A stretch of DNA of 63,363 nt, taken from an uncultured Bacteroidales bacterium (GTDB taxonomy: Bacteria; Bacteroidota; Bacteroidia; Bacteroidales; UBA7960). The notes below the pieces were generated by a model. That model was not told the origin of the DNA and did no database searches. It saw only the letters and a program-made list of their open reading frames with translations. Positions 29,213 through 49,589 of the stretch are shown here, one piece after another (position 1 is the first letter of the stretch; the number at the start of each line of letters is the position of its first letter). A program made the translations under genes and the position numbers. The stretch is from the NCBI GenBank assembly GCA_964463915.1, contig CAYXEH010000009.1, forward strand, positions 1-63,363, written 5' to 3'.

Positions 29213-29248
29213 AAAAGCCCGTTGATCTTTGATTAACGGGCTTTTTTT
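29213..29248. terminator. Bidirectional terminator overlapping the gltS-like stop codon
   Basis: aaaagcccgttgatc / gattaacgggctttt stem with A and T runs on both sides. Confidence 0.75.
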
Positions 29249-30591: not shown

Positions 30592-30731
30592 GATTCAGAT
30601 TGTTTTTTTCAGGCAAAGAAAATGATTTCTGGCAAACAATCCCATTATTCATAAAAATAAAGTGATTCTGCCGAATATATTTCTTGTCTAAATATCAGGT
30701 AGTGAAGAAGTAAATGCCTGGCAAAAATAGC

Positions 30732-30748
30732 TTAACAAATTATTAACA
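30732..30748 (+). promoter_or_regulatory. OmpR/PhoB-type direct-repeat box TTAACA-N5-TTAACA
   Basis: ttaaca-aatta-ttaaca; second half-site starts 38 nt before TACATTTG. Confidence 0.65.
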
Positions 30749-30780
30749 AGTTCATTCATAGGGTTTTGCTTAAACCATTC

Positions 30781-30788
30781 TACATTTG
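30781..30788 (+). promoter_or_regulatory. -7 promoter element TACATTTG
   Basis: TAnnTTTG match ending 48 nt before ATG 30837. Confidence 0.6.
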
Positions 30789-30836
30789 AGAGGTCTAAAT
30801 GACGCATAATTCAAAAAAAATAAAATTGCGTTATTT

Positions 30837-32042
30837 ATGAAAGGTTTACAGATTATTTTAGTATTGTTGCAGTGTGCCGTAATTGGATTATTTATACATC
30901 AGCCCGTTACGGCGTTTGCGAATGAGAATGACACTAACCGGGAAGATAAGGAAATGACCAATGATGAAGAATCCGGGGAGTCGGAAGGAGATAGGGATAG
31001 GAGCAGCGAAAGCTATCCTTTTCTGATAATGGAAATGGGCGGGGAAACTTATTCCAAATATAGCCCTGAAGCCGGTGACGGGATTGGAGGACTCGCTGGC
31101 ATAATGGTTGACCTCGATGGAAACCTCAGTGAGCAGATGACATTTTTTGGAGCGTTGCATTTTGATTCTTCCTTGTGGCATGATTTTTTGAATAAACCTG
31201 CGTACATTCGAAAAGAGAATTCCAATAATGAGATCGGGATGGAGGTTGAAGAATTCTTTATTACCTGGAAGCCGGATATCGCAAATCTTGAATTTACGGC
31301 CGGCCGCATGTTTTCTGTAATTAGCTATGCCAATCAGTTACACATGTCCGATTTTCAGTTTAATATGAAACCACGGATTTTTACTGAATACTGGGGTGAC
31401 AATCACGGGTTGGCATTGGATGGAGGAAGCATAAAATGGCAATATGATGCTGGTCGTACCAGGACTGCTTTTCTGGTAGAGGCAGCCAGAAACGGATACC
31501 AGTCGGAGCATACAATGCTCACCTCTACAGTAGATTTCGCCTTTGATATGGGAAACGTTGATATGGGCCTGAGGGGATTCGGGTATTTTGATCACCAGGC
31601 AAATGATCACCCGTTTTTTAATAATATTCCGGCCAGTGATGCCCCATTTGTTGACGCCGTGGAGCTGAATGACGGACTTGGGATGAATGCCTGGGGAGGA
31701 GGTGCCAATTTCCTTTGGGATAGGCCGGGAGATCGTTCTGTATTCTTTCAAACCGAATGGGTAAACCGGAAATTTGCCAATGATAATTTCTTCGGAGGTT
31801 ATGCTTTTTTAGTGTTGAATCACACAGATAAGATCAGCAGCAGCATTATGTATCAGCAACTCGAGTTGCCGGACTTTGAATCCGGTGCAATCAATGTCAC
31901 TGAAGAGCAGGTTTATACAGTCGGTTTAACTTACCTCCCTGTATATAACCACCGATTGCGCCTGGAATACAATCATTTTACCGACAATTCATTCTATGAC
32001 AATATGCTGCTGGCGAAATGGACCTTTTTTATTGAAATCTGA
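30837..32042 (+). CDS. Outer-membrane beta-barrel/porin, possibly metal-uptake associated
   Basis: Signal peptide, acidic N-terminal extension, EEFF...AGRM...NQLH...P...G..G pattern, terminal beta-strand WTFFIEI. Confidence 0.55.
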   Translation: MKGLQIILVLLQCAVIGLFIHQPVTAFANENDTNREDKEMTNDEESGESEGDRDRSSESYPFLIMEMGGETYSKYSPEAGDGIGGLAGIMVDLDGNLSEQMTFFGALHFDSSLWHDFLNKPAYIRKENSNNEIGMEVEEFFITWKPDIANLEFTAGRMFSVISYANQLHMSDFQFNMKPRIFTEYWGDNHGLALDGGSIKWQYDAGRTRTAFLVEAARNGYQSEHTMLTSTVDFAFDMGNVDMGLRGFGYFDHQANDHPFFNNIPASDAPFVDAVELNDGLGMNAWGGGANFLWDRPGDRSVFFQTEWVNRKFANDNFFGGYAFLVLNHTDKISSSIMYQQLELPDFESGAINVTEEQVYTVGLTYLPVYNHRLRLEYNHFTDNSFYDNMLLAKWTFFIEI

Positions 32043-32053
32043 CAGCAATCCAA

Positions 32054-34318
32054 ATGATGCAATTTATGGACCGAAACACCCTGAAAACATCCAGTACCAA
32101 ATTCTTGTCATATCTGGCTGATAATAGATATGAAGTGCAAAACCTGAGACATGGTAATGCTGAAATAATATCGGGAATACGGATCATAATTTTGCTGCTT
32201 GTCTTTTTATTTACTGTGAACCCGGCAAGGAGCGATGAGGGGATGTGGTTGCTGCCGGTAATAGGTTCCGATAATATGGAGCAGATCCGCCTTCTGGGAG
32301 GCAATATGTCGGCAGAAGATATTTTCAGTAACGAAAAGATCAGCCTCAGTGATGCAGTGGTTAATGTGGGCAATATGGGGTCAGGGTCAGTGGTATCCGC
32401 CGGGGGATTGGTGCTGACCAATCACCATGTTATTTATGATCATATTCAGCGTCTAAGCACTGCGGAGAATGATTACCTCACAGAAGGGTTCTGGGCCTCT
32501 TCTCATGAGGAGGAACTCCCGGCGAAAGGATTGAGTGTGACATTCCTGAAGAAGATCATTGATGTCACCGACCAGGTAAAGGCTGAAATTGCTTCCCGCA
32601 GGGAAAGTGGTGAAAGGGCCTCCATGCTGATGATTGGCAGGAACCTCTCATCTGAATACACAGAAGGTACAAGTTACTCGGGGTTTTTGTCCAATCACTA
32701 CAAGGGAGGGAAATATTACCTATACATTTATGAAGTGTTTGAGGACGTTCGTTTGGTGGGATTTCCCCCTTCTTCCATAGGAAAGTTTGGTGGCGATGAG
32801 GATAATTTCATGTGGCCAAGGCACGCGGGCGATTTTGGTTTTATCCGCGTGTATGCTGACAAAGAAGGACAACCGGCAGATTATTCCCCGGACAATGTGC
32901 CCTATGTGCCTGATCGTTTCCTGGAAATTGATGCGGGAGGAATCGATGAATTGGATTTTTCTATGGTAATTGGTTATCCCGGGGGTTCCCAAAGGTATCT
33001 GACCGCATCCCAGGTGGAAGATCTGATGAAGGTGGAACATCCCGGACGCATAGCGGCCCGTAAACGACGACTTGACATCATCCGGGAGGAAATGCAAGCC
33101 AGTGATGAAGTCAGGATTAAATATGCGTCGAAATATTTCAATGCCACGAATGGATTGCAGCTATCACAAGGACAGTTAGAGCAACTTAAACAGCATAACG
33201 TTCCGGCCATTAAACGCGCCGAAGAAGAAGCATTCATGGCTTGGGTAGAGGATGATTCCGACAGGAGGGAAAAATACGGCAAAGTCCTGCAAACAATCCG
33301 CGAATCTGTTGAGAAAAAGCGTCCCACTGCCTATGCCCATCACTTGTTGAATGAAGCCATGCTGATGGGGACCGAGGTTTATGTGGCGGGCATTCGTGCC
33401 AATGTGTTTTACCGTAATCTGGATGAAGATGTCACCGGGGCGGAGTTTGCCGAGGCTGTTTCCGGATTTTCAGGCAGGCAATCCGGGTTTTACAAGGATT
33501 ATCATCCTCCTGCTGATCGTCGTGTGGTGGCTGCAATGATGGAATTGGTCAGTGAGGAATTGCCCCGGGAACACCAGCCTGACATTATTCATTATGCGGA
33601 TAGTGCATTTGACGGAGATTACCAGGAATTCGCAGCATATATGTTTGAGAACTCTTTCCTGACTTGTCCGGAGCGTTTTGAGCATTTTATCAACCACCCC
33701 CGGTTGAAAGTGATGCAAGACGATCCGGTGATCCGTTATTCAGCCAGTATTTATGATAAGGCCATTGAACTGCGTGACATTAACCGGGAGTTGTCGGAAG
33801 GGGAACGGGCTGGCTCCCGTCTGTATATGGAGGCAATCCGTGAAATGAATACAGATGAATCCATGTACCCGGATGCCAATTTCACCATGCGAATGAGTTA
33901 TGGGAAGGTGATTGGATACAGCCCCCGCGATGCGGTGTTTTATGAACATGAAACAACATTGCGGGGTGTGATGGAAAAGATGGATGCAGAAGACCCTGAT
34001 TTTACTGTTCCGGCTACACTTCAGTCATTATACTCCGGTAAGCGATTTAGCTCCTATGGGGAAAAGGACCGGATGCCGGTAAATTTCATCACGGATAATG
34101 ACATTACGGGAGGAAATTCCGGCAGCCCTGTCATTGGAGCGGACGGACGCCTGAAAGGGGTGGCTTTTGACGGCAACTGGGAATCGCTGGCCGGAGATGT
34201 GGTTTTTCTTCCTGATCTGAACCGGGCCATTCATGCAGACATCCGGTATGTGCTCTTTATCACGGATCAGTTTGCAGGGGCTTCACATATAATGAATGAG
34301 CTGAAAATCATTTATTAA
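32054..34318 (+). CDS. S46 dipeptidyl peptidase (DPP7-type), copy 1
   Basis: DEGMWL, TNHH, HAGDF, DANFTMR, ITGGNSGSP, FDGNWE; true start uncertain (long leader). Confidence 0.92.
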   Translation: MMQFMDRNTLKTSSTKFLSYLADNRYEVQNLRHGNAEIISGIRIIILLLVFLFTVNPARSDEGMWLLPVIGSDNMEQIRLLGGNMSAEDIFSNEKISLSDAVVNVGNMGSGSVVSAGGLVLTNHHVIYDHIQRLSTAENDYLTEGFWASSHEEELPAKGLSVTFLKKIIDVTDQVKAEIASRRESGERASMLMIGRNLSSEYTEGTSYSGFLSNHYKGGKYYLYIYEVFEDVRLVGFPPSSIGKFGGDEDNFMWPRHAGDFGFIRVYADKEGQPADYSPDNVPYVPDRFLEIDAGGIDELDFSMVIGYPGGSQRYLTASQVEDLMKVEHPGRIAARKRRLDIIREEMQASDEVRIKYASKYFNATNGLQLSQGQLEQLKQHNVPAIKRAEEEAFMAWVEDDSDRREKYGKVLQTIRESVEKKRPTAYAHHLLNEAMLMGTEVYVAGIRANVFYRNLDEDVTGAEFAEAVSGFSGRQSGFYKDYHPPADRRVVAAMMELVSEELPREHQPDIIHYADSAFDGDYQEFAAYMFENSFLTCPERFEHFINHPRLKVMQDDPVIRYSASIYDKAIELRDINRELSEGERAGSRLYMEAIREMNTDESMYPDANFTMRMSYGKVIGYSPRDAVFYEHETTLRGVMEKMDAEDPDFTVPATLQSLYSGKRFSSYGEKDRMPVNFITDNDITGGNSGSPVIGADGRLKGVAFDGNWESLAGDVVFLPDLNRAIHADIRYVLFITDQFAGASHIMNELKIIY

Positions 34319-34356
34319 GATAAATCAACAGATTCCCTTAACAAAATCATGCATCC

Positions 34357-36552
34357 ATGAATTATATATTAAGGAGCCGGAACGGATTTTTTGCGTTTAT
34401 TTTCTTTGTGATCTGTTTGTTCGCATTCAAACCAACACTGAAAGCGGACGAGGGCATGTGGTTACTTCCCTATCTCGAAGACCTGATCATGGAAGACATG
34501 GAAGAACTCGGACTAGAACTGTCTGCAGATCAAATCTACGCTGTCAATAATTCCAGTCTGAAAGATGCGGTGGTGATTTTTGGCAGTGGCTGTACCGGTG
34601 AAATTATTTCACCAGAGGGCTTATTGTTGACCAATCATCATTGCGGGGTGGACTTGTTTCAGGCATTAAGTAATACCGAAACCGATTACCTGGAAGAAGG
34701 GTTTTGGGCGATGAGCCAGGAAGAAGAGTTGCAGGTTCCCGGTCTTTCTGTTTCATTTCTGGTACGTGTTGAGGATGTGACTGACAGGGTTTTGTCTGCC
34801 TCCTCCGGTGATATGGATGATGAGGAAAGGAGCCGTGCCATTCGTCAGGAGCGAAGCAGGATTCAGCAGGAAGTTTCTGAGGAAGGTCCTTACAGGGGAT
34901 CGGTGGAACTCTTCAGAGTGGGAGATGTCGGGCAATATCTGCTTTTTGTGTATCAGGATTATGCTGACGTACGGTTGGTTGGCGCACCGCCTAACTCTAT
35001 CGGTCAATTTGGCGGCGATGAAGACAACTGGGAGTGGCCAAATCACAATGCCGACTTTGCCCTGTTTCGTGTATATATGCAATCTGACGGACAACCTTCT
35101 GAATCTTTCAACGAGCAGAATATACCTTATGAGCCGGCTCATTATTTTCCGGTTGCCCTTACCGGCCTGGATGAGGGTGATTTTGTGATGGCCATGGGGT
35201 ATCCGGGCATTACCAGCCGCTACCTGACTTCTTACGAAATTGAAGAAGAAATGGAAGTGGGAAACAAGATTCGTGCGGATATCCGGGGGAAGAGGCAGGA
35301 AATTTGGAAAGAAGCCATGGAAGAAGACGATGAGGTCCGGTTGCAGTATGCATCCAGGTATTTTAATTCCAGCAATTACTGGAAATATTCAATCGGTCAG
35401 AATGAAGCACTCAGGAACCTGGAAGTGATTGATGATGCCCGAAAACTGGAAGATCGTTTCCGTCAATGGGTCAGGGAGGATCCTGAAAGGGAGGAATCGT
35501 ACGGAGAGGCATTAACGCTCATTGAACACAGCATAAATGAGAGAAGAGAACGGGCATACAGTCATCAATTGATTATGGAAGCCCTGATCGGAAGTCAGTG
35601 TTATTTCCCCTATGGACGGCGAATACATACATTATATTCCCGGCTTATTGACGATGAATATGACCGTCATGATCTTGACAGCCGTGTTCAACGCCTTCGG
35701 GAGGCACTTGACAGGTTTTATGACTATCATATGCCTACTGAACGTGCTGTTCTTGAAGAATTGCTGCCTTACGTGATGCAGGAACTTCCAGAGGAGCATC
35801 AACCGGATTATTTCCGTGTTATTGAGGAGGAGTTTGATGGTTCAACGGATAACTTTATTGCATACCTGTTTGAAACCTCTGTAATGACTGACAGAGAACG
35901 AATAGAGGATTTTCTGCGGAATCCCGATGCAGAAAGACTGAAGAATGATCCTGGTTTTCATTTTACCAATTCGGTGTTTGATAAAGCAGTGGAGCTCAGG
36001 CAGCAAAACACGGCGATTACACGTCGTTTTCTGATTCCGGGGAAAAGGCTCTGGTATGAAGCCCTCAATGATATGATTGCCGAAAGGGAGTTGTATCCCG
36101 ATGCCAATTTCACCATGCGACTTACTTATGGGGGCGTAAAAGGTTATGAGTCAAGAGATGCTGTGATTTATGAACCTTTTACAACCCATGAAGGGATTAT
36201 AGAGAAAGTTGCACGCCATCCTGACCTGTATTCTCCTCCCGATGAACATATTGAGTTACTTACTTCAGGAGACTTCGGCCCGTATGGTGTTGATGGTATC
36301 CTCCCGGTTTCTTTCCTTTCAAATCTTGATATTACCGGGGGCAATTCCGGAAGTCCTGTGCTGAACAGTCGCGGGGAACTGGTTGGGATTGCTTATGACG
36401 GCAACTGGGAAGCCATGTCTTCTGATATTGCTTATTCTCCTGATTTTCAAAGGGCCATAAGTGTTGATATTCGTTACGTGCTATTTATGATTGATAAATA
36501 TGCCGGGGCAGGCTACCTGCTGGAGGAAATGGATATTATCGGTGTCAATTAA
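34357..36552 (+). CDS. S46 dipeptidyl peptidase (DPP7-type), copy 2
   Basis: ADEGMWL, GCTG, TNHHC, HNADF, DANFTMR, ITGGNSGSP, YDGNWE. Confidence 0.93.
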   Translation: MNYILRSRNGFFAFIFFVICLFAFKPTLKADEGMWLLPYLEDLIMEDMEELGLELSADQIYAVNNSSLKDAVVIFGSGCTGEIISPEGLLLTNHHCGVDLFQALSNTETDYLEEGFWAMSQEEELQVPGLSVSFLVRVEDVTDRVLSASSGDMDDEERSRAIRQERSRIQQEVSEEGPYRGSVELFRVGDVGQYLLFVYQDYADVRLVGAPPNSIGQFGGDEDNWEWPNHNADFALFRVYMQSDGQPSESFNEQNIPYEPAHYFPVALTGLDEGDFVMAMGYPGITSRYLTSYEIEEEMEVGNKIRADIRGKRQEIWKEAMEEDDEVRLQYASRYFNSSNYWKYSIGQNEALRNLEVIDDARKLEDRFRQWVREDPEREESYGEALTLIEHSINERRERAYSHQLIMEALIGSQCYFPYGRRIHTLYSRLIDDEYDRHDLDSRVQRLREALDRFYDYHMPTERAVLEELLPYVMQELPEEHQPDYFRVIEEEFDGSTDNFIAYLFETSVMTDRERIEDFLRNPDAERLKNDPGFHFTNSVFDKAVELRQQNTAITRRFLIPGKRLWYEALNDMIAERELYPDANFTMRLTYGGVKGYESRDAVIYEPFTTHEGIIEKVARHPDLYSPPDEHIELLTSGDFGPYGVDGILPVSFLSNLDITGGNSGSPVLNSRGELVGIAYDGNWEAMSSDIAYSPDFQRAISVDIRYVLFMIDKYAGAGYLLEEMDIIGVN

Positions 36553-36607
36553 GGAGGTCAGCATGAACCTTGAAGATGCTTTCATCGGTTTGACAGGAAA
36601 ATATTAA
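36542..36607 (+). pseudogene. 3' relic of a second ABC ATPase gene (contains mini-ORF MNLEDAFIGLTGKY, 36563-36607)
   Basis: Translates VSIKEVSMNLEDAFIGLTGKY* versus KSVEEVKMNLEDAFIGLTGKY* at the end of the intact ATPase 38561-39451. Confidence 0.85.
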
Positions 36608-37372
36608 TCCAAACAGGATAAAATAACGTTGCCATGTATAAATCAATTATTTACAAGGAATGGTTAAAGATACGTTGGGCACTGGCCTTATTCCTGGTTG
36701 CCGGTTTGCTGACACTGGTGAATATTTTTCTGAACGTGCGTTACGGTATACGTTTTATGGATGCCCATGAGTTCTGGTACGGGATAATCATCCAGGGCGG
36801 CAACTATGCGGCATCCTTTAAGTATATCCCCTTATTTGCCGGGTTGGGGCTTGCTGTTTCCCAGTATTATCCTGAGATTCTGGATCAGCGGATTAAACTG
36901 ACCTTTCATCTGCCCATCCGGGAAAACAAGGTATTGCTATTGCAGCATGGGTTCGGACTGGTGTGCCTTTTGGCTGTTTACCTGGTTTACGTGGTTATTT
37001 TCATTACCGGCAGTGGGCTCTACTTTCCAGCGGAGGTGACTGTGATGATTGGTCAAACGATTCTGCCCTGGTTTCTTGGCGGGCTGGCCACTTATTCGCT
37101 TGTGGCCCTGATCATGCTCGAGCCCCTTTGGCTTTACCGGGTGTTGTATGCGGTAATCGCCTATGGTCTGGTGTCTCAGTATTATATAGAAGCGGTTCCG
37201 ATGGCTTATACCCGGGTTATGTGGGTATTTGCTTTGTTCTCGGTAGCCACTGTAATTGTTCAATTATTTTCAGGATACAGATTCAGGAAAGGAGAGATGC
37301 ATCATGGTTAAGATAAGCAGGTATGTATTGGTACTGATCGGGATCATTGTTACTGCCATAGCAATTCCGGAG
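36581..37372 (+). repeat. 792-bp direct repeat, copy 1
   Basis: No mismatch found by eye against 39425-40216 (offset 2844); ORF-track translations in three frames are identical. Confidence 0.92.
36634..37311 (+). CDS. ABC transporter membrane subunit (about 6 TM), copy 1
   Basis: YKEWLK...QYYPE...RIKLTFHLP; hydrophobic; adjacent to ABC ATPase. Confidence 0.75.
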   Translation: MYKSIIYKEWLKIRWALALFLVAGLLTLVNIFLNVRYGIRFMDAHEFWYGIIIQGGNYAASFKYIPLFAGLGLAVSQYYPEILDQRIKLTFHLPIRENKVLLLQHGFGLVCLLAVYLVYVVIFITGSGLYFPAEVTVMIGQTILPWFLGGLATYSLVALIMLEPLWLYRVLYAVIAYGLVSQYYIEAVPMAYTRVMWVFALFSVATVIVQLFSGYRFRKGEMHHG

Positions 37373-38542
37373 CTTTACTGGACAATTTTCAGGGGAACCT
37401 ACAGGCTGCCCGGTGTAATGTATAGCCAGGTGATTGATGATTTCATTCTTGCACAACCCGGTGATGAGGGTACAATCTATTCAGATCCCTCCGGCAATAC
37501 ATATACTGTAGACGAGGCGGAGCAGAAGTTGCCGTTATTGTCTCACAGACAACTCTACGCGGATGGTATAATGCCTGATAGTTTAAAAGGTGTTCCTCTT
37601 GATCATGAGACCATCAGTACCCACAGGGCTTCCTACATGTTTAATCCGCGAAACTTTCAGACTCCTTCGCCATTGTTATGGCCATTGCTGGAGTCCAGAA
37701 GTGGTCGGGCCAGTCTTTCTTTACCGGAAGACTTTTTCCGGCTTGATGAGAGCATTGAATTTATTGTGGCAGAAACCAACCAGGTAGACCGGGAAAAGAG
37801 CAGGGTATTTAACCAGGCTCTGCTCCGTGAAGGTTTTGTGTTTCCTGCCGACCTGGTTGCAGGAATCCCCACAGCAAGGAAAAGCCGGGATGATGGTTAC
37901 TTTATTACTGATCACACCGGAGCCCTGTTTCATTTAAAAATGGTCCAGGGAGAACCGTATGTGTCTTCCATTGAGACACCTGATGAGATGGATGTTATTT
38001 TTATCGAATGTGTGGATATGAGTAGCCGAGAATTATTCGCTTATGTGTATACCGCTTCCAATAATGTATTCATGCTGCTGCAGGAGGATTACCGGCTGCA
38101 GCAGTTGCCCATTTCAGAATTTAACTTCCGGGCTGACCGGCTTCGTATCCGTCATGACTTATTCGGCAAAACCATTAGCCACATCAAAGAAGATCGGCTA
38201 TTTGTAAAACGAATCAATAAGTCTTATGAGCAAATTGATCAATATGAAACTTCCTGGTCGGCAAGGCATGAGCGACCTGACTATAGAATGTTCTCATATC
38301 TGTTTCCCTTTGAACTAAGATTGGAAAAACCAGAATCCGAGTATATCGGCTTTTTCCTTCAGTTCACATCCGGTTATTACTGGGGGATTTTCCACATCCT
38401 GCTCCTTGGGATCACTGTATGGTTGATTAAACGAAAGAAGCAGCCTGTCAGGAAACATATCCCTGATTTGGTACTTGTTTTGCTGACAGGACTGTTTGGA
38501 TTTATTGCGGTCCGGGTTTTCCCAAATAGATTTTATGATTAA
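37304..38542 (+). CDS. DUF4857-like membrane-anchored periplasmic protein, paralog 1
   Basis: N-terminal TM, large soluble domain (WPLLES, EDFFR, GYFI.D..G.LFHL), two C-terminal TMs; ATG overlaps permease 3' end. Confidence 0.65.
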   Translation: MVKISRYVLVLIGIIVTAIAIPELYWTIFRGTYRLPGVMYSQVIDDFILAQPGDEGTIYSDPSGNTYTVDEAEQKLPLLSHRQLYADGIMPDSLKGVPLDHETISTHRASYMFNPRNFQTPSPLLWPLLESRSGRASLSLPEDFFRLDESIEFIVAETNQVDREKSRVFNQALLREGFVFPADLVAGIPTARKSRDDGYFITDHTGALFHLKMVQGEPYVSSIETPDEMDVIFIECVDMSSRELFAYVYTASNNVFMLLQEDYRLQQLPISEFNFRADRLRIRHDLFGKTISHIKEDRLFVKRINKSYEQIDQYETSWSARHERPDYRMFSYLFPFELRLEKPESEYIGFFLQFTSGYYWGIFHILLLGITVWLIKRKKQPVRKHIPDLVLVLLTGLFGFIAVRVFPNRFYD

Positions 38543-38560
38543 ATGATCCATTAAAACCTA

Positions 38561-41386: not shown

Positions 41387-41417
41387 CAGATTTGTAATAA
41401 GTTACTGTTGGTTAAGC

Positions 41418-41434
41418 TGTTAACTAGTTGTTAA
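41418..41434 (-). promoter_or_regulatory. TTAACA-N5-TTAACA box (reverse orientation) upstream of the TonB-dependent receptor
   Basis: Plus strand tgttaa-ctagt-tgttaa. Confidence 0.55.
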
Positions 41435-41582
41435 GGGTAAAAGTTTTTGTAGATTTTTTGTCATTTGCTTTGTATATTGGGAAGGTCTTAAAGGAATACC
41501 GGGATCAGTTTAAGAGTATTCCTTATAAAAGCCGACATAGTTAATAGCAATTATTTTTATTGACCAGTAAATAGTGGGTTTA

Positions 41583-44456
41583 ATGCGTAGCAGCTATCTT
41601 TTTACTCTGTTTCTTTTTCTGATGCTGTTCAAAGGAGCAAACGCCCAGGAGCGACACGAAGTCTCCGGGTTGGTCATAGAGACGACCGATAGTATTACCC
41701 TGCCGATGGTGGCTGTGGGTATTAAGGAGTTGGATATATGGGTTGTTTCAGATATGGAAGGGAAGTTTACAATGCGGAATGTGCCGTCCGGTCAATATAC
41801 CGTACAGGCAAGTTGTCTGGGTTTTGAAAGATTTGAACAGCCCATCAATGTTCCGGGGGAACATGAAATTCTGGTTTCAATGAAACCAACCTCTCTTGCG
41901 CTGGATGAAGTTGAAGTTACTGCCAGGGAGGGAGAACGTATAGGCAGTTCTACTGTCATCGGGAGCTCAGCCATTGAACATGTTCAGCCCTCTGACATTT
42001 CTGATATCCTTCAGCTGCTTCCAGGGCAGGTGTCTGCCAATCCGGATCTTTCGAGAGAGAGCCAGCTTTCATTAAGAGACCTGGGTGATCCCAGGTCTAA
42101 CCCAATGGCTGGTCTGGGTACAGGCCTGGTCATTGATGGAGCTCCGGTTATGAACTCTGCCAACCTGCAGGCACCATCCACTTCCACCGTAGGGGCCCTG
42201 GGCAGGCTTGATACAGATTTTGCCTCCACAGCCGGCACAGGGGTGGATGTGCGTGAGTTCATGGTAGATAACATTGAGTCAGTTGAAATTGTCAGGGGTA
42301 TTCCTGGCGCAGAGGAAGGGAATATACTCAGTGGAGTGGTTCGGATTACCACTAAAAAGGGTGAAAGTCCACTGCGTCTCAGGACCAAAGTTGATCCCAA
42401 TATCAAACAGCTCTACATGGGTCGCGGCCTGCGACTTTCTGACAATCTTGGGACCCTGAACCTGGATTTGGATTATGCCCAGACTCAGGCCGATATTCGC
42501 TTTCCTTATCGTACCTATAACCGGCTGAGCGGTAACGTAACCTATAATAACACGATTCTTTCTGATTCCAGACCGCTTACTTATAATTTCTCACTGCGCT
42601 ACGCGAATACAAGCGACGTGAGGGAGAGTGATCCGGACATGCTGGATATAGAGGAATTCTCCTCACAGGAACATAATTTAGATCTTGCCTTGTCCGGCAG
42701 ATGGATCATCAACAGTGCCCTGCTGACCAATATCCGGTATAATTTTTCCGGACGCTATCAGGACCAGCACAGTAAAGATATTCGTCATCGTTCTTTATCG
42801 CAGCCCGAAGTTCGTCCCGTTGCAATGGAACCAGGTGAGTTTGAGTCAGTGTTTTTACCCTCCCGATATGTGGCGGAAGTGAATTATTATGGAAAGCCCT
42901 ACTATTTTAATGCAAATGTAAGTGGGCGGAAAGTGAATCGCTGGGGTGATGTTACCAATACAATCACAGGTGGTTTTTCTTACCGGATTAGTGGCAACAA
43001 TGGACGGGGTCGTATTTATGACATGGATAGTCCGCCCCGGGACGGTTCCAGGCCCAGACCTTTTACCGACATCCCTTCACTGTCGCAACTTGCGATGTTC
43101 ATCGAAGAGGCGGTAATGATGCCATTAGGTGCTACCACACTGGAATTTGAAGCCGGTTTGCGTTTTACCAATATGCAGCCTGAAGGAATGTTAGAATCTG
43201 AGGTAAATACCACTATACTTGACCCGCGTTTGAATCTGAAATATAATATCTTTGAAAAACGAAACGGGTTACTGAAAGATCTCAGTTTAAGGGTTGGCTA
43301 CGGTGTTTTTTCTACAGCGCCAACTCTTTTACACTACTTTCCGGATAAAGCATATACCGACCGGGTAACATTTAACTATTATGATGCCTCGCTTTCCCCG
43401 CCTCATACATTGGTTATTACAAATACGGATGTAATAGAGGATACTCGTAATTATGACCTGGGGCCGGCCAGAAACACCAAATTTGAGACAGGTGTAGATT
43501 TTAAATTGGGTCGCGTTGAGGTGTTGCTTACTGGTTATTTCGAAGAAATGGAAGATGGATTTTCTTTCCACCGTGAATATGGAACTTTTATTTTCGACCG
43601 CTACGAACGCCTGGAGAGAGGTGGCTTATTTCCGGAATACCTTCCGGGGGTAGGAGTTGTTTACAATGATCCTGACACGGGAAATCAAGTGACTGTTCCT
43701 ACCAGGCCGGACACCACCTTTGTTTCCCATTCTTACCCGGAAAATTCAGAGCGCACCGTGAAGCGTGGGATTGAATATAGTATTGATTTCGGAAATGTGC
43801 CCGGATTGAAAACCTCTTTCCAGCTGAATGGGGCATACATGATTGTACAACGTCAGGATATGACAGATTACCTGGAAAGACCAACCACTACATGGGAGGG
43901 GCAGCGGCTTCAACTCGTAGGCTTATTCCCAGGAGGGCAGGGGCAAATCAATGAACGGTTTAATACAAATATCCGTACCACCACTCATATACCCCAATTG
44001 CGTCTGGTTGTTTCTATGACAGCCCAGGTTATTTGGAGAGAGAGCAGGACAAAAATATACGAAGATAAAAACGGAAATCCATGGGTAATGACTGAACAAC
44101 CTACAGATGATCCTTACGGTGACCGTACCCAGCGGAAGTTTGTTTACCCACTGGGGTTTTATGACCCGGCAATGAATTTCCATCCCTGGGAGGATCATAT
44201 GGCCGGGGTGCGACCCTATAATGACCTGATTGATCACCATACCAACCCTGAATTGTTCATCCCTATTGTAGCACCACCGGTTTTTCAGATTAATACAAGG
44301 ATAACCAAGGAAATATCAGATGCAGCTACTCTGTCGTTCTTTGTGAATAACCTGACCAATTACCGGCCATTGCAAAAGCAGCGGGGCCGGACGGGGAGTT
44401 ATACCCGGCGTAACCAATCGATATATTTCGGAGGAGAACTAACAATCACCATTTAA
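41583..44456 (+). CDS. TonB-dependent receptor with N-terminal carboxypeptidase-regulatory-like domain (non-SusC type)
   Basis: Signal peptide ANA-Q, LDEVEVTA TonB-box-like, plug LQLLPG...VIDG...NIESVEIVRG, terminal YFGGELTITI. Confidence 0.9.
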   Translation: MRSSYLFTLFLFLMLFKGANAQERHEVSGLVIETTDSITLPMVAVGIKELDIWVVSDMEGKFTMRNVPSGQYTVQASCLGFERFEQPINVPGEHEILVSMKPTSLALDEVEVTAREGERIGSSTVIGSSAIEHVQPSDISDILQLLPGQVSANPDLSRESQLSLRDLGDPRSNPMAGLGTGLVIDGAPVMNSANLQAPSTSTVGALGRLDTDFASTAGTGVDVREFMVDNIESVEIVRGIPGAEEGNILSGVVRITTKKGESPLRLRTKVDPNIKQLYMGRGLRLSDNLGTLNLDLDYAQTQADIRFPYRTYNRLSGNVTYNNTILSDSRPLTYNFSLRYANTSDVRESDPDMLDIEEFSSQEHNLDLALSGRWIINSALLTNIRYNFSGRYQDQHSKDIRHRSLSQPEVRPVAMEPGEFESVFLPSRYVAEVNYYGKPYYFNANVSGRKVNRWGDVTNTITGGFSYRISGNNGRGRIYDMDSPPRDGSRPRPFTDIPSLSQLAMFIEEAVMMPLGATTLEFEAGLRFTNMQPEGMLESEVNTTILDPRLNLKYNIFEKRNGLLKDLSLRVGYGVFSTAPTLLHYFPDKAYTDRVTFNYYDASLSPPHTLVITNTDVIEDTRNYDLGPARNTKFETGVDFKLGRVEVLLTGYFEEMEDGFSFHREYGTFIFDRYERLERGGLFPEYLPGVGVVYNDPDTGNQVTVPTRPDTTFVSHSYPENSERTVKRGIEYSIDFGNVPGLKTSFQLNGAYMIVQRQDMTDYLERPTTTWEGQRLQLVGLFPGGQGQINERFNTNIRTTTHIPQLRLVVSMTAQVIWRESRTKIYEDKNGNPWVMTEQPTDDPYGDRTQRKFVYPLGFYDPAMNFHPWEDHMAGVRPYNDLIDHHTNPELFIPIVAPPVFQINTRITKEISDAATLSFFVNNLTNYRPLQKQRGRTGSYTRRNQSIYFGGELTITI

Positions 44457-44476
44457 TCATCAAAAACCCAAACACT

Positions 44477-45682
44477 ATGAAGAAATTAGTAATGATTTTC
44501 ACCCTGGCACTCATTTCAGGAGTTATCTTTTACTCCTGTGAAGATGATGGTGCCACGATTTATGATGTCACCGTTCAGGTGAATTTCCCTGAAATGGAAG
44601 GACTGGATATTACGGATTACTCCGGTGTGGATGTCCGTATGACCAACAACCTCACTGGTATTGAATCGGCTGCTGAAACCAATGCCCAGGGCATTGCTGA
44701 ATTCGCGGTTGAAGAAGGCAGTTATGACATTTCTGCCACTTATGCTACGGAAGATTATAACTTTAGTGGCATTGATTCAAACCGTTCCGTGGCCTCAGCA
44801 GAGAGTTTTGAAGTAGACCTCGTGGCGACAGCTGTTGGAGGAGGACTGCTGTATAGTGAAATCTACCATACCGGTTCAGAAAACCCTGAAGGTAAGAATT
44901 ATTCCGGTGACTCTTTTGTTGAGATCTACAATAACAGTGATGAGGTAATCTATCTGGATGGTCTTTGTATAGGCCAATTGGATCATCTTACCTCCAATGA
45001 ATCGCGCTGGCAGGAAGATGGCGAGCTTTATTCGCGGCTCCCAATCACCTGGCAGACCTGGATGATTCCCGGAAATGGAGAAGATTACCCGCTTGAGCCC
45101 CGGGAAAGTGTCGTCATAGCTAAGACAGCAATTAACCACCAGGATGATCCTGCCGGTAATCCACTTTCGCCTGTTGATTTATCTGATGCCGATTTTGAAA
45201 CCTTTATGGATAATGACCGGGGAGATGTGGACAATCCTAATGTAACCAATATGATCCAGGTATACAATGCGGTCAGCCCGATGGTTCCTGACTGGATTTT
45301 GGATACCCGTGGGGCTCCGATGCTTTTGTTCAGGTTACCTACGGGTACCGATTATGAAGCCTTTGTATCAGATCCGGACAATTTCATGCAACGTCTGGAT
45401 GGTGTAGGAAGCTTTGAATATTTGATGGTTGATCCTGAATGGGTGATCGATGCTGTTGAGATTGCAAGACCTGGAGATGTGGTTCATAAAGGACTACCCA
45501 CCAATCTTGATGCAGGTCATGTGATGACAGAAGAAGGAACGGGTGCAGGAACCAGCATTCGCCGTTTGGTTGAAGCCATATTGGACGGAAATGTGATTTA
45601 CAAAGACACCAACAACTCCACTGAAGACTGGATCAGCGACAGAACCCCTAAACCGAATGAGCATCCGGCAAGCGTAGATTAA
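44477..45682 (+). CDS. DUF4876-like surface lipoprotein
   Basis: Lipobox YSC then EDD; SEIYHTG, FVEIYNNSDEVIYLDGL, DLSDADFE, WVIDAVE, DTNNSTED. Confidence 0.72.
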   Translation: MKKLVMIFTLALISGVIFYSCEDDGATIYDVTVQVNFPEMEGLDITDYSGVDVRMTNNLTGIESAAETNAQGIAEFAVEEGSYDISATYATEDYNFSGIDSNRSVASAESFEVDLVATAVGGGLLYSEIYHTGSENPEGKNYSGDSFVEIYNNSDEVIYLDGLCIGQLDHLTSNESRWQEDGELYSRLPITWQTWMIPGNGEDYPLEPRESVVIAKTAINHQDDPAGNPLSPVDLSDADFETFMDNDRGDVDNPNVTNMIQVYNAVSPMVPDWILDTRGAPMLLFRLPTGTDYEAFVSDPDNFMQRLDGVGSFEYLMVDPEWVIDAVEIARPGDVVHKGLPTNLDAGHVMTEEGTGAGTSIRRLVEAILDGNVIYKDTNNSTEDWISDRTPKPNEHPASVD

Positions 45683-45710
45683 AAACATGATTAATTATTA
45701 ATAAAGGATT

Positions 45711-45739
45711 GCAGTGCAGGCATTTAAGGCCTGCACTGC
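45711..45739 (+). other. Intercistronic GC-rich stem-loop (mRNA stabiliser or weak terminator)
   Basis: gcagtgcaggc / gcctgcactgc perfect 11-bp stem, 7-nt loop, no long T-run. Confidence 0.65.
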
Positions 45740-45765
45740 TTATCCCAATCAACTTACTTGTTGGA

Positions 45766-47343
45766 ATGAATACAAAAAAAATCATAGTGGTTATTTTACT
45801 GCTTATTGTTGCTGGACCACTCCCTTTGTGGGCATCCCAGGAAATGGATACGATTTTTTCCAGGAAAACGGCAGATTTTTTTGAACAGATTGATATGATG
45901 AATCCCTGGCATTTGAGTAAAAATCCTGCAGGGTTTGTGTTTTATCCGGCAAATAATATCAATCGCATCCAACTAGGGTATTTCAATAAGAACGATAACC
46001 TCCGATGGGCCCAGGCCCCGGGAAGCACGATCAGTTATACAGCCGAAACAGAGGGGATAAGGAGGATCGGACGTGTTGTTGCCAAAGGAAGTTTTCGTTA
46101 CCAGAATAGTCACTACCGTGACATTCTATTCAATAATACCTCAGTCTTTGATAACCGGAACATTTATACCACCGGCGATACCCTGGGCGGACCACAACGC
46201 AAAGAGGGTTATCTGATGACTGCAGGAGCGGGTCTTGCGCTGAAAGATAACTGGTTCGTCGGACTGGATTTTGACTACAGTACAGGAGTTGGAGCCAAGA
46301 TGCAGGATCCCAGGAATTTGAATGATCAATCCCGCCTGGACATTATTCCGGGAGTCATTTTCCGGCATGGTCAGCTTTTTTTTGGTCTTAGCGGCGGACC
46401 CGTCTGGGAAAGAAACCAGGTGAACATCAAAAATATGCTGGAAGAGCGTCATTCACTGTTCCATATGATGGGTATGGGATATTATAACCTGTCCCGTAAT
46501 ATTAGCAATGAATCATATTTATTTGACAAATTCGGGCTTCATGGATCTGTTCAGTTTGGACTGGAAAAGCCGGGTTTTGGTACTTTTCACACGATTCGTT
46601 ATTCAGGATCTGACATGAAGCGACTGGAGGGAAGCCATTATCGGCTGCTGGCCGGAATTACCCATCGTGATGAGTTGTCCTATAAAGGGAAAATTTTGCT
46701 GGAAAAAGAACGGTATTTGCATCATGTGAACATCAACGCGTCATATCTCCGTTTGAACGGGTCCGAAATCAGTCAGGAAACCTATTCTGTCGGAGAGGGG
46801 CACCTCAGGTGGTTTGAAGTAAGGACCATCAGATGGATCGATGACAAACATATTGTGTATGACATGGATGCCGGATTGAGTTATCAATTGATCCGGCTGG
46901 GCAGGCGTGGCCGTCCTTTCACATACCGCATTGAAGGCGGGGCAGGTTTTCGTAGTTATGAGGCCAATCATTACCCGGTACATCTTTATGGGTCTTATAA
47001 TGTTCAGACTATCACACCCTATTTGGAGTATCGTCATTATTTCCGATTTTTGCACTTTGATTTGGATCCTTCTGTCAGGCTGACCTCAAGACATGCGCTT
47101 TCACAGAATTACCAGGTACAGGATCAGGACCGTTTTAATCCGGAGATCCCGGAAACCGATTTCCGGTACCTCGTCACCGACTACTATAAGGTGGATCTTG
47201 GCGTGAAACTTTCGCGGTCTTTGCGCATAGGAAGGTTGCGGGAGACCTATCTGGACATTACAGGATCTTATTTACACATCCCGGAGTGGCAGGAAAATAA
47301 TTACGATAGGATGTTAGAGGTATCTTTCGGTTTGGTTTTCTAA
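45766..47343 (+). CDS. Outer-membrane beta-barrel (DUF6850-like)
   Basis: Signal peptide, NPW..S.NPAG, KMQDPR, terminal SFGLVF; DUF call from memory of this gene triad. Confidence 0.6.
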   Translation: MNTKKIIVVILLLIVAGPLPLWASQEMDTIFSRKTADFFEQIDMMNPWHLSKNPAGFVFYPANNINRIQLGYFNKNDNLRWAQAPGSTISYTAETEGIRRIGRVVAKGSFRYQNSHYRDILFNNTSVFDNRNIYTTGDTLGGPQRKEGYLMTAGAGLALKDNWFVGLDFDYSTGVGAKMQDPRNLNDQSRLDIIPGVIFRHGQLFFGLSGGPVWERNQVNIKNMLEERHSLFHMMGMGYYNLSRNISNESYLFDKFGLHGSVQFGLEKPGFGTFHTIRYSGSDMKRLEGSHYRLLAGITHRDELSYKGKILLEKERYLHHVNINASYLRLNGSEISQETYSVGEGHLRWFEVRTIRWIDDKHIVYDMDAGLSYQLIRLGRRGRPFTYRIEGGAGFRSYEANHYPVHLYGSYNVQTITPYLEYRHYFRFLHFDLDPSVRLTSRHALSQNYQVQDQDRFNPEIPETDFRYLVTDYYKVDLGVKLSRSLRIGRLRETYLDITGSYLHIPEWQENNYDRMLEVSFGLVF

Positions 47344-47414
47344 GATGTATTGCTGTTTCGCAACTGACTTATCTAATTTGGGTCTTTAACCCCATGCAGC
47401 ATGGCAGGCTGAAT

Positions 47415-48116
47415 CTAATCATGTTTAAGCTCCAGCTTAAATCCGGCACCATGGATATTTATGATGGCAATATTGGGATCTTCCCTGAGTAATTTACGTA
47501 GTTTGGCAATGTGCACATCCATGCTTCGTCCCATAAAATAATCATCCTCGCCCCAGATTGTACGCAAAGCTGTTTCCCGCTTCAGTAATTTGTTCCTGTT
47601 CAGATATAGCAGGCGCAATAACTCAGCCTGTTTGTTTGTCAAAGGAATTTCATTTTCCCCGAGCATCAGTTTTTTTTCTGAATAACTGAATACATACCTG
47701 CCGATATTGAACACATTGTGACTGCTGTCAAGCCCCGAAATATTAATCCTTTTCAGGATTGCTTCAATTCGCAGAACCAACTCTTCGGTGCTGAAAGGTT
47801 TGGTAATGTAATCGTCTGCGCCGTGTTTAAATCCTTTCAGCTTGTCTTCGGTCATGGTCTTGGATGTAAGAAAAATAACGGGAACCAGGCTGTCCAGTTT
47901 GCGGATATCTTCCGATAATTTAAATCCGTCTCTATTGGGGAGCATGATGTCAAGCAGGCAAAGATCAAAATTGTCGCTTTTGAAGGTTTCCAGCCCGCTG
48001 TCCCCATCTTCAATGTGTACCACTTCGTAACCGGACATCTCCAGGAAATCCTTTACAATAAATCCCAGGTTGCGATCATCTTCAACCAGTAAGATCCTTC
48101 CCTTGGTCTTTTTCAT
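47415..48116 (-). CDS. OmpR/PhoB-family response regulator (RprY-like)
   Basis: LLVEDD, LDIMLP..DG, GADDYITKPF, IWGEDDYFMGRSMDVHIAKLRK. Confidence 0.93.
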   Translation of the reverse strand: MKKTKGRILLVEDDRNLGFIVKDFLEMSGYEVVHIEDGDSGLETFKSDNFDLCLLDIMLPNRDGFKLSEDIRKLDSLVPVIFLTSKTMTEDKLKGFKHGADDYITKPFSTEELVLRIEAILKRINISGLDSSHNVFNIGRYVFSYSEKKLMLGENEIPLTNKQAELLRLLYLNRNKLLKRETALRTIWGEDDYFMGRSMDVHIAKLRKLLREDPNIAIINIHGAGFKLELKHD

Positions 48117-48135
48117 AAGAGTTAACAGTATTGGA

Positions 48136-49401
48136 TTAGTTTTTATCGATTGATGGCAGAAAAATACTGAAGGTCGTGCCCTTATTCAGGTCGCTTTCCA
48201 CTTCAATGTTCCCTTGATGGGCATTCACCATTTCTTTTACATAATACAGGCCTAAGCCAAATCCCTTGGCATTATGCAGGTTGCCGGTAGGAACCCTGTA
48301 AAATTTGTCAAAAATATGGGGGATGTATTCTTTTTTGATGCCGATGCCATTGTCCCGGAAAGAGATGACAATGCCATTGTTGGTGTTCTTTGTGCCAATG
48401 GTAACATGCACATCGTTGTTTGAATATTTGGACGCATTGCTGATCAAGTTGGTCACGATGTTGTAAAAATGCATTTCATCAACAAATGCCATCGGGTCTG
48501 TTGCATTGTATTGATACGTCAGGGAGATGCGTTTTTCAAACTGCTCGAGGCATAAAGAATTGATGGCTTCATTGATCAGGTCGTGGATATTCTTATAAGA
48601 AAATTTCAGTTTAAATTCTGTTTTTTGAAGCAAAGCCATTTTCAGAATGTACTCCACCTGGGTCTTCATGCGGTTGTTCTCCTCCTGTATAATTCGGGAA
48701 TAATGCCTGACTCTTTCCTCTGCGGCCTTTGGATCAGATTTTAACAACACCTCAGATGCCAGGGATATGGTGGATAAGGGGGTCTTGAATTCATGCGTCA
48801 TGTTATTGATGAAATCATTTTTGATATCTGCGACCTTTTTCTGTTGCATAAAACGAAAAATTACAAAGTAAAGTAACCAACCGACGGAAATCAGTAAAAT
48901 CGCAGACAAGGTCAGCCAAAACCACATTTCCCGGAGAAGAAACTGCTGTTTGTTTGGAAAAAAGACGCCCAGCTGATAGTTCTCCGTTTGCCATGAAGAA
49001 CAATTTTCATGTGGTTTCAGGGAGATGGTGTTGCTGAAAATCCCCCGGTTTACGTTTTCATCATTGACATTGATCAAACTGTATTCGTAATTCTCAAGCA
49101 AGTCGTAGTTGCGAAAGACATTTTCGAGGGTGACTTCCAGGAAGTCGTAATTAATGACATGTTCCAGGTGGCTTACTTCAGGGTCATAATTCTCACATTC
49201 TGTATTGGTACAGCCCCTGTAGGATTCTGTGGAGGATGCCAGGATATCAACCACCTCATTCAGCGCCAGGGTTACCCGATGGTCGTACTGTTCTTCTGAC
49301 AGGTCAAGGGCATTGGATATCCACCGTAACTGTGAGATACCCAGTCCGCTGAGAACAACCGCAGAAAAGACAATAATCAATATGAACTGTTTCTTGCTCA
49401 C
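48136..49401 (-). CDS. Sensor histidine kinase (RprX-like), GTG start
   Basis: Two TMs, FINNMTHEFKTP H-box, NLISNASKY, DNGIG, FDKFYR, GFGLGL. Confidence 0.93.
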   Translation of the reverse strand: MSKKQFILIIVFSAVVLSGLGISQLRWISNALDLSEEQYDHRVTLALNEVVDILASSTESYRGCTNTECENYDPEVSHLEHVINYDFLEVTLENVFRNYDLLENYEYSLINVNDENVNRGIFSNTISLKPHENCSSWQTENYQLGVFFPNKQQFLLREMWFWLTLSAILLISVGWLLYFVIFRFMQQKKVADIKNDFINNMTHEFKTPLSTISLASEVLLKSDPKAAEERVRHYSRIIQEENNRMKTQVEYILKMALLQKTEFKLKFSYKNIHDLINEAINSLCLEQFEKRISLTYQYNATDPMAFVDEMHFYNIVTNLISNASKYSNNDVHVTIGTKNTNNGIVISFRDNGIGIKKEYIPHIFDKFYRVPTGNLHNAKGFGLGLYYVKEMVNAHQGNIEVESDLNKGTTFSIFLPSIDKN

Positions 49402-49419
49402 CGGAATGAATATATGTAA

Positions 49420-49447
49420 ATAACTGTGGTTTAACGAACAATTAACA
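49420..49447 (+). promoter_or_regulatory. Triple 11-bp-period box ATAACT-N5-TTAACG-N5-TTAACA between kinase and M16 genes
   Basis: Last half-site starts 38 nt before TATTTTTG (49480-49487), same geometry as at 30743/30781. Confidence 0.65.
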
Positions 49448-49589
49448 GCCTGCCTGTTGTGCCGTCGCCGAAATCTGCTTATTTTTGATTATCAAAAAGA
49501 TATGATGCATTAAACCGATGCAAAATAAGGAAATTTGCCTTAACATACAAGCTCAGATTTCGTTAAGTTTTTCTTAAATATTCAGCATT

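Follow-up and report, generated by a model that had tools for sequence, protein, structure and literature searches.

The window analysed here is contig C9, a stretch of 63,363 nucleotides from the 2,697,733-base, 109-contig genome of an uncultured Bacteroidales bacterium (GenBank assembly GCA_964463915.1, contig CAYXEH010000009.1). Between 30.7 and 52.5 kb it carries a cluster of peptidase and transport genes in which a sensor histidine kinase and a response regulator (RR) are embedded. Our subject is a short direct repeat, TTAACA-N5-TTAACA or a near copy of it, found upstream of the three gene units of this cluster, and the regulator that might bind it. The genes, assigned from the list of open reading frames (ORFs) and from Pfam, are as follows.

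30837 to 41386, plus strand: unit 1, a 401-aa protein, two S46 peptidases, a 225-aa ORF and DUF4857, an ABC ATPase, and a second 225-aa ORF and DUF4857
41574 to 47343, plus strand: unit 2, a TonB-dependent receptor (TBDR), DUF4876 (putative lid lipoprotein) and DUF6850
47415 to 48116, minus strand: RR of the OmpR/PhoB family, an RprY-like paralogue (Response_reg and Trans_reg_C)
48136 to 49401, minus strand: sensor histidine kinase, 421 aa (HisKA and HATPase_c)
49590 to 52511, plus strand: unit 3, an M16 (insulinase-type) peptidase of 973 aa

On both ORFs and Pfam matches this agrees with the gene content described in the original prediction. The 401-aa protein, whose gene is called the barrel gene below, had no match in a Pfam search. 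Successive ORFs of unit 1 either overlap or are separated by gaps of 11-81 nt. The kinase ORF starts with GTG at 49401, and its predicted structure has a mean pLDDT of 72, with blocks of the sensor part down to 41-58.

The boxes and the associated promoter words are listed next.

30732 to 30748, plus strand: box A, TTAACAAATTATTAACA (TTAACA-aatta-TTAACA), exact, read directly, before unit 1
30781 to 30788, plus strand: −7 promoter word TACATTTG of Bacteroidota type, 38 nt past the start of the second half-site of box A
41418 to 41434, minus strand: box B, TTAACAACTAGTTAACA (TTAACA-actag-TTAACA on the minus strand), exact, reading TGTTAA-N5-TGTTAA on the coding strand of the TBDR
49431 to 49447, plus strand: box C, TTAACGAACAATTAACA (TTAACG-N5-TTAACA), read directly, facing the M16 gene
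49480 to 49487, plus strand: −7 promoter word TATTTTTG, 38 nt past the start of the second half-site of box C
49561 to 49577, minus strand: box D, TTAAGAAAAACTTAACG on the kinase coding strand, then N32 and TTATTTTG; found by a loose core scan
49521 to 49528, minus strand: −7-like word TTATTTTG (one mismatch), 38 nt past the start of the second half-site of box D, a candidate kinase-regulator promoter

The original prediction had named three sites, at 30732-30748, 41418-41434 (a perfect copy in reverse) and 49420-49447, with a −7 word at a 38-nt offset from the first and last of these. All three were read directly at these positions, as were TACATTTG at 30781 and TATTTTTG at 49480. In boxes A and C, 32 nt therefore separate the end of the box from an exact −7 word. 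The site at 49.4 kb is a row of three hexamers on the plus strand, ATAACT-N5-TTAACG-N5-TTAACA, in which ATAACT occupies 49420-49425; ATAACT lies 18 nt, and TTAACG 29 nt, from the kinase start codon. ATAACT had been counted as a third half-site, and is dropped from the box here because neither of the two closest relatives, G023 and G018, conserves it. With box D included, two box-N32-promoter modules occupy the kinase/M16 spacer as mirror images, each pointing outward across the other. Box B lies 139 nt from the start of the TBDR ORF at 41574, and has the same orientation as the boxes of kinase operons elsewhere in the phylum, described below. All the boxes of the window are direct repeats with a half-site of about 6 bp and a period of 10-11 bp, as is typical of OmpR/PhoB-type operators.

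The exact box TTAACA-N5-TTAACA occurs only four times in the genome, counting both strands, and two of these are in this cluster. Hexamer independence gives an expectation of 0.14, and 12 simulated order-3 Markov genomes contained 0-1 copies (mean 0.25); exact boxes are thus 16-28 times over expectation. The same pair of hexamers at 20 other spacers (0-4 and 6-20) was found 0-2 times each, so the excess is specific to spacer 5. None of the four lies inside any listed ORF of at least 100 aa. Boxes with one mismatch behave differently. There are 12 at N5, no commoner than at other spacers (5-15), and because this class is not enriched box C is supported not by its sequence alone, but by its geometry and conservation.

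The geometry of box C does hold up. There are 1842 copies of TAnnTTTG in the genome (3.4e-4 per strand position). Of the 16 boxes that have one mismatch or none, two carry this word, exact, at offset 38, against an expectation of 16 x 3.4e-4, and both are in this cluster. The genome scan against random background that had been set as a test of the prediction thus came out in its favor, both for the number of exact boxes and for the 38-nt offset. A looser scan found 23 cores of the form TTAAS-N6-TTAAS, of which three (boxes A, C and D, all in this cluster) have a −7-like word with at most one mismatch at offset 38; each other offset from 20 to 69 matched 0-2 times. The primary sigma factor of Bacteroidota recognizes a −7 element TAnnTTTG and a −33 element TTTG located about 17-23 nt upstream. 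On reading the 32-nt spacers of boxes A and C we found no TTTG at that distance, and the predicted promoters of these boxes are placed from the TAnnTTTG word only. A scan of 30500-50400 with sigma-70 promoter and terminator models gave matches no commoner than in shuffled sequence.

We searched 40 related genomes, 24 congeners and 16 from other families of the order, for the kinase. A full-length orthologue is present in eight: the congeners G023 (86% identity), G018 (80%) and G002 (47%), and the more distant G033, G031, G040, G034 and G027 (37-41%). The cluster is kept in the three congeners, and is rearranged in G002. In all three the 17-mer of box A is identical and in the same place, followed by N32 and a −7 word that is TACATTTG in G023, TATTTTTG in G018 and TACTTTTA in G002; mean column identity over the alignment of the barrel-gene promoter is 56%, and the 32-nt spacer has partly diverged. 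Box C and its −7 word TATTTTTG are invariant in all four M16-side sequences (the window, G023 and both copies in G018). In the spacer before the TBDR the longest invariant run of a three-genome alignment is GCTGTTAA-N-T-NN-TTGTTAA, and this is box B. Box D is kept in G023 and in the kinase-adjacent copy in G018, where the −7-like words are GTATTTTG and TTATTTTG respectively.

Two of these genomes have altered the arrangement. In G018 (L002 4256-9767) the cassette of box, N32 and TATTTTTG is duplicated, with one copy before M16 and the other before a 1383-aa S8 subtilase; this subtilase is inserted between M16 and the kinase, together with a DUF285 protein that carries a type IX secretion tail. 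The duplicate before M16 has no kinase beside it. Its M16-facing module is intact, and its kinase-facing box reads TAAAGT...TTAACG with nothing −7-like at offset 38. The loss of the kinase-facing module from the copy that lacks a kinase fits that module being the kinase promoter. In G002 a box precedes an S46-TBDR operon at 43 nt from TATTTTTG, one helical turn more than in the window.

The presence of the box tends to follow that of the kinase. The barrel-gene box was found in all three of the other kinase-bearing congeners, against one of the four kinase-less congeners with upstream sequence (present in G012; absent from G011, G021 and G024). The four genomes of the genus that have the kinase contain 4, 7, 3 and 4 exact boxes; the 21 other congeners hold 21 in total, a mean of 1.0. 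As a control we counted the box read backwards, which gave 0, 2, 0 and 0 in the kinase-bearing genomes and 9 in total in the other 21. M16 paralogues located away from the kinase have a box with at most one mismatch in none of seven loci from seven genomes (one locus having only 181 nt upstream). Over the order as a whole, seven of the eight genomes with an orthologue, from six families, have a box with at most one mismatch ahead of the kinase gene (the exception is G027), and in each case box and gene are on opposite strands. The genes upstream of the kinase gene in G031 and G034 (engB, prs, rplY and pth) share its strand and the box follows pth, so the box belongs to the kinase operon.

Some further features of these spacers may be recorded here. 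A block TTAAACC(A/T)TTCT directly before the −7 word of the barrel-gene promoter (30770-30780 in the window) is invariant in five genomes (the window, G023, G018, G002 and G012). The minus strand has an exact TATTTTTG at 30722-30729, 2 nt from box A and facing a Glt_symporter-like gene (29233-30591); it is not kept in G023. The −7 word of M16 falls within a near-perfect palindrome, TTTTTGATTATCAAAAA (49482-49498), whose minus strand gives the −7-like TCTTTTTG, and which is kept in G023 and G018. An antisense promoter driven from box B was considered and rejected: in the window, G023 and G018 alike, the minus strand lacks a −7 word at offset 38.

The two exact boxes outside the cluster have other surroundings. 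One, on contig C30 at 4177-4193 (L109), lies between a gene with NYN and cold-shock domains and hisS-hutH. This box persists in G023, G018 and G020, its spacer letters varying, and at least three of ten more distant congeners (G002, G012 and G017) have no exact box there. The other, on contig C41 at 9815-9831 (L110), is 8 nt before TATTTTTG and overlaps the −33 region; a small signal-peptide ORF and a TonB-dependent receptor follow. This different geometry could mean repression. A pair of one-mismatch boxes on contig C8 (62414-62432, L117) forms a palindrome in the spacer that separates the genes for a LacI-family regulator and a TonB-dependent receptor; an operator of LacI type is more probable there than a site of the present system. 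The one-mismatch boxes did not define a wider regulon: their neighbors are mixed (two TonB-dependent receptors, another outer-membrane barrel, a TPR kinase, mutS, EamA and ribosomal protein L1), and we do not count them as targets.

Related kinase operons were then compared across the phylum, using at least 80 loci (902,857 bases) that mix short-kinase orthologues with longer-kinase relatives; all counts given here are among the loci listed. Cultured strains are represented, among them Chryseobacterium sp. 8AT (L068), Gaoshiqia sediminis (L057) and Perlabentimonas gracilis (L039). There are 13 exact boxes, of which 11, from 8 loci, are within 320 nt upstream of the kinase gene, and these are all in one orientation. 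To count the core of the repeat, the kinase start was set by ORF extension, 300 nt upstream was taken, and 3 of 85 loci with less than 150 nt upstream were dropped. Of the remaining 82 upstream regions, 47 have GTTAA-N5/6-GTTAA on the kinase strand (15 of 29 for short kinases and 32 of 53 for the others). The opposite orientation, TTAAC-N5/6-TTAAC on the kinase strand, is present in none of the 82. An exact TAnnTTTG stands between the repeats and the start codon in 36 of 49 repeat-bearing loci. The distance from the last GTTAA to the first TAnnTTTG is 26, 27, 28 and 29 nt in 2, 16, 8 and 3 loci respectively, making 29 of the 36; the other seven distances are 9, 11, 18, 37, 40, 57 and 65 nt. 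Arrays of two to four repeats are found upstream of the kinase operons of these relatives.

On these sequence data there is a tight promoter layout across the phylum, consisting of two to four (x)GTTAA repeats, about 27 nt, a predicted −7 word and the kinase-regulator operon. RprY of Porphyromonas gingivalis is reported to bind its own promoter (PMC3646045; PMC5706477). Given this, and the position of the layout upstream of the clade's own operons, we read the repeats as the putative autoregulatory operator of the clade. The box of the window appears to be the operator type of this RprY-like clade of the OmpR family. That it would be a direct-repeat operator of the OmpR/PhoB kind was part of the original prediction, and is well borne out by 6-bp half-sites, an 11-bp period, conservation and linkage to the regulator family across the phylum.

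In the genome under study exactly two of 20 GTTAA repeats have the canonical layout of GTTAA repeats, 27 nt and TAnnTTTG. Both are just upstream of paralogous kinase genes.

Contig C20, 17654 to 17705: clade-wide layout site upstream of a paralogous kinase-regulator operon
Contig C51, 4865 to 4916: clade-wide layout site upstream of a second paralogous kinase-regulator operon

The site on C20 has the form TGTTAA-N4-TGTTAA-N27-TACCTTTG. Besides its kinase operon, the C51 box faces a divergent gene of the Porph_ging family and one for a large outer-membrane barrel. Two layouts can thus be told apart: GTTAA repeats that end 27 +/- 1 nt before TAnnTTTG, which is clade-wide, and TTAACA repeats that end 32 nt (or 43 nt) before it, which is that of this cluster. 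G002 has one box, located between its barrel and kinase genes, that fits both: TACTTTTA follows after 32 nt on one strand, and TATTTTTA after 37 nt on the opposite strand.

The embedded RR is a member of the OmpR/PhoB family, matching PF00072 at 3.7e-29 and PF00486 at 3.7e-16. Its translation contains LLVEDD and LLDIMLP, which we take to be the usual acidic pocket and the context of the phospho-acceptor Asp. Its best NCBIfam model is RprY (NF051850). The score of 285 bits is below the equivalog cut-off of 370, so the protein is filed as RprY-like and not as RprY. The genome encodes three other full-length regulators of OmpR type. That on C20 is 50% identical to the embedded RR, scores 340.5 bits on the RprY model (also below 370) and lies beside a 543-aa kinase; that on C51 is 38% identical to the embedded RR; and that on C42 is PhoB (326 bits), within a pst-pho cluster.

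Taken together, the boxes are very probably functional, that is, real cis-elements of the OmpR/PhoB direct-repeat type. We judge the embedded RR (47415-48116) to be their most likely binder, and probably a genuine if not exclusive one. It is favored because the boxes are inside its own cluster, because the barrel-gene box tracks the kinase, and because kinase-bearing genomes hold more exact boxes. The main competing explanation makes the RprY-like regulator on C20, or that on C51, the principal or an additional binder of the boxes, and the cluster part of a broader regulon of the clade. It is helped by the higher score of the C20 regulator on the RprY model, by the GTTAA box of the C20 operon itself, by the fact that longer-kinase relatives carry GTTAA repeats as often as the short-kinase type, and by the barrel-gene box retained in G012, where the kinase was not found. 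The location of the boxes, the three of three against one of four congeners with a barrel-gene box, and the 3-7 exact boxes in each kinase-bearing genome against a mean of 1.0 without the kinase all speak for the embedded RR instead. Moreover a C20-type system was matched in all 24 congeners, so it has no power to explain the difference in box number. We therefore regard mainly paralogous binding as unlikely, although it is the alternative to be taken most seriously. The recognition helices of the embedded and C20 regulators are near-identical, so the motif cannot separate the two, and cross-binding by paralogous regulators at the cluster boxes may occur.

A number of observations weigh against the assignment to the embedded RR, or against the uniform geometry that goes with it. 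The recognition helices just mentioned differ by one residue (RSMDVYIAKLRK against RSMDVHIAKLRK), and the kinase-regulator pairs on C20 and C51 each have GTTAA repeats and N27-TAnnTTTG upstream. The window kinase does not: its GTTAA repeats lie only 29 nt ahead of the start codon and lack a −7 word at the clade-wide distance, and a canonical N27 promoter for it was rejected as absent. G012, which is 95% complete, has no full-length kinase orthologue that we could find, yet has a barrel-gene homologue preceded by a box with another spacer and then N33; it is a counter-example unless its kinase was left unassembled. About half of the 21 boxes in the kinase-less congeners are within 1.5 kb of a paralogous kinase gene, which points to the clade rather than to a single member. 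The distance from box B to candidate −7-like words is inconsistent, at 18 or 25 nt in the window, 28 or 48 nt in G023 and 38 nt in G018, ruling out a fixed spacing toward the TBDR. Box D has two mismatches and was discovered post hoc, and it precedes the M16 start codon by 13-29 nt, a stretch that other constraints could keep conserved; for these reasons its role as a kinase-facing promoter module is tentative. The predicted fixed promoter geometry accordingly holds for boxes A and C and fails for box B. Similarly, the proposal that the box marks the barrel/S46/ABC, TBDR and M16 units stands in the four genomes of the genus with the kinase-regulator pair, and the embedded RR is not the sole candidate to read it, given the C20 and C51 paralogues and G012.

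The remaining explanations are much less probable. Repeats of TTAACA in 11-bp phase resemble the core sites of PhoP/PhoB-type regulators, which might suggest that these are Pho boxes of the genome's PhoB and that the cluster is regulated by phosphate. This is highly improbable. The embedded RR scores 176 bits on the Bacteroidota PhoB model (NF053854; cut-off 270) and is not PhoB, the true PhoB being that on C42; the pstS spacer has the words TGTAAC, TGTAAT and TGTTAC in place of GTTAA, with three mismatches in its best match to the box; and Pfam searches of the window ORFs found no phosphate genes in the cluster. Binding by an unrelated protein, or a role as a UP-like promoter element with a purely positional link to the RR, would leave room for the unexplained conserved block between box A and its −7 word. 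It is nevertheless very unlikely given the strict orientation of the element with the kinase-regulator operons of one clade (47 of 82 loci), and given that 6-bp direct repeats with an 11-bp period are the signature of a tandem dimer of the OmpR/PhoB family, as in ArcA (PMC3798270) and YycF (PMC5405149). The unenriched one-mismatch boxes are what chance repeats in AT-rich intergenic DNA would produce. Set against the excess of exact boxes, a geometry unique to the cluster and the conservation of the boxes amid diverged flanks, chance is barely credible as an explanation.

With the embedded RR as the probable binder, the cluster could work as follows. The half-site TTAAC(A), which is (T)GTTAA on the other strand, recurs every 11 bp and would be bound by a head-to-tail dimer of the phosphorylated RR. 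At the barrel/S46/ABC and M16 promoters the box ends 32 nt before TAnnTTTG, and this would place the RR just upstream of the −33 region. Members of the OmpR/PhoB family usually activate from just upstream of the −33 region. Activation of the units by the RR had been predicted, and the position of the boxes suggests it as a possible mode of action. The missing −33 TTTG in both spacers would also fit a dependence on an activator. At the TBDR unit the perfect box B is in the opposite orientation, as relatives use for their own operons.

Because the degenerate box D, with its N32, points to the kinase-regulator operon, the pair is probably under its own control. Autoregulation had also been predicted. 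The clade-wide boxes before the clade's own operons agree with autoregulation as such; its route is less likely to be the 49.4 kb box than box D, which the prediction had missed, and is not by the N27 layout. The 49.4 kb box read backwards could still serve as an autoregulatory site. It is conceivable, and we put it forward tentatively, that a single direct-repeat operator serves the clade in both orientations, the distance to the −7 word being fixed separately for each, and that the kinase/M16 spacer holds two flipped modules as a mirror pair. If this were true each transcript would cross the operator of the other, and autoregulation and target expression would be coupled in an interlocked switch of 150 bp.

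A terminator scan of the spacer between unit 1 and the TBDR (41386-41574) found no terminator-like site, so that a separate transcript of unit 2 driven from box B is only a possibility.

In form the element is an ordinary operator of the OmpR/PhoB type, and several known systems resemble it in part. The closest named family is RprX/RprY of Bacteroides and Porphyromonas, which is of OmpR type, and whose binding to its own promoter matches the operator upstream of the related operons. The embedded system differs in that its RR is below the equivalog cut-off, a closer RprY-like copy is on C20, and its kinase, at 421 aa, is shorter than the C20 type of about 540 aa. RprY has been described as a repressor of nqrA (PMC6032018). 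The nqrA spacer of the present genome has no box, and its best match, with three mismatches, is uninformative on RprY targets. HaeSR of P. gingivalis, another pair of OmpR type, directly controls gingipains, TonB-dependent receptors, ABC systems and itself, with hemin as signal (PMC3764172). Its mix of targets is like the mix of genes in the present cluster, a likeness in kinds of target.

Outside the phylum, the ArcA boxes of Escherichia coli are two direct repeats, 11 bp from center to center, often with 3-5 repeats one or two helical turns apart (PMC3798270). These arrays resemble the two to four GTTAA repeats upstream of the related kinase operons. ArcA differs in belonging to another regulator clade and phylum, in mostly repressing, and in having no fixed distance to the promoter. 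The letters of the ArcA half-site resemble those of this box. The predicted YycF sites of Staphylococcus epidermidis include TGTTAAGGTAGTGTTAA and other TGTxAx-N5-TGTxAx words, some of them TGTTAA-N5-TGTTAA (PMC5405149). WalR/YycF of Firmicutes shares the form of hexamer, N5 and hexamer, but the regulator and its cell-wall regulon are unrelated, and the resemblance is one of motif class only. The Pho box likewise has direct repeats of 11-bp period abutting the promoter, with class-II-like activation; it differs in its regulator, the embedded RR not being PhoB, and in the half-sites used by the pstS spacer of this genome.

The gene content also has parallels. The TBDR-DUF4876 and DUF4857-ABC loci BT3625-33 of Bacteroides thetaiotaomicron and PG1019-22 of P. 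gingivalis are induced 21- to 215-fold by iron depletion; the accessible part of that study (PMC10434189) names no regulator or operator for them. They share the domain families of units 1 and 2, which are here joined to S46 and M16 peptidases and to the kinase-regulator pair. DUF4876 has been proposed as the lid of non-SusC TonB-dependent transporters (bioRxiv 10.1101/2023.03.17.533168). Since homologous loci are induced by iron depletion, and HaeSR is coupled to hemin, a metal, heme or peptide cue is a reasonable guess for the signal.

Two further observations concern the cluster as a whole. An exact direct repeat of 792 bp (36581-37372 and 39425-40216, 2844 bp apart) comprises the 225-aa ORF together with the 5' portion of the DUF4857 gene, and 3' of it the two copies drop to about 50% identity; it could be a recent gene conversion or an assembly effect. 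Two RNA-library runs labeled as salt lake metagenome match many genes of the cluster (window 30400-50399) at 90-95% identity. The matches are as contigs only, form a small share (0.08 and 0.05), come from relatives at that identity, and carry no information on starts, strand or levels. As the contigs match the cluster genes at 90-95%, relatives of this organism are present in those libraries.

A literature search found no paper giving TTAACA or TGTTAA repeats as the site of a Bacteroidota regulator. Nor did it find a published RprY or HaeR motif in the portions of the literature it covered; the 2007 primary paper on RprY and the supplements of ChIP-seq studies were outside it and are possibly relevant. 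Three things are new here: a fixed layout that RprY-like operons share across the phylum, its flipped counterpart in this cluster, and the mirrored pair of modules between the kinase and M16 genes. These provide a concrete operator and promoter rule for an RprY-like clade of two-component systems that is widespread in Bacteroidota, and the layout of GTTAA repeats, N27 and TAnnTTTG could be used for regulon finding in any Bacteroidota genome. The boxes before all three units in the kinase-bearing genomes of the genus support the treatment of 30.7-52.5 kb as one regulated system, as had been proposed. Secreted or periplasmic peptidases of the S46 and M16 families (and S8 in a relative) would then be tied, together with TonB-dependent uptake, to one sensor in this uncultured lineage.

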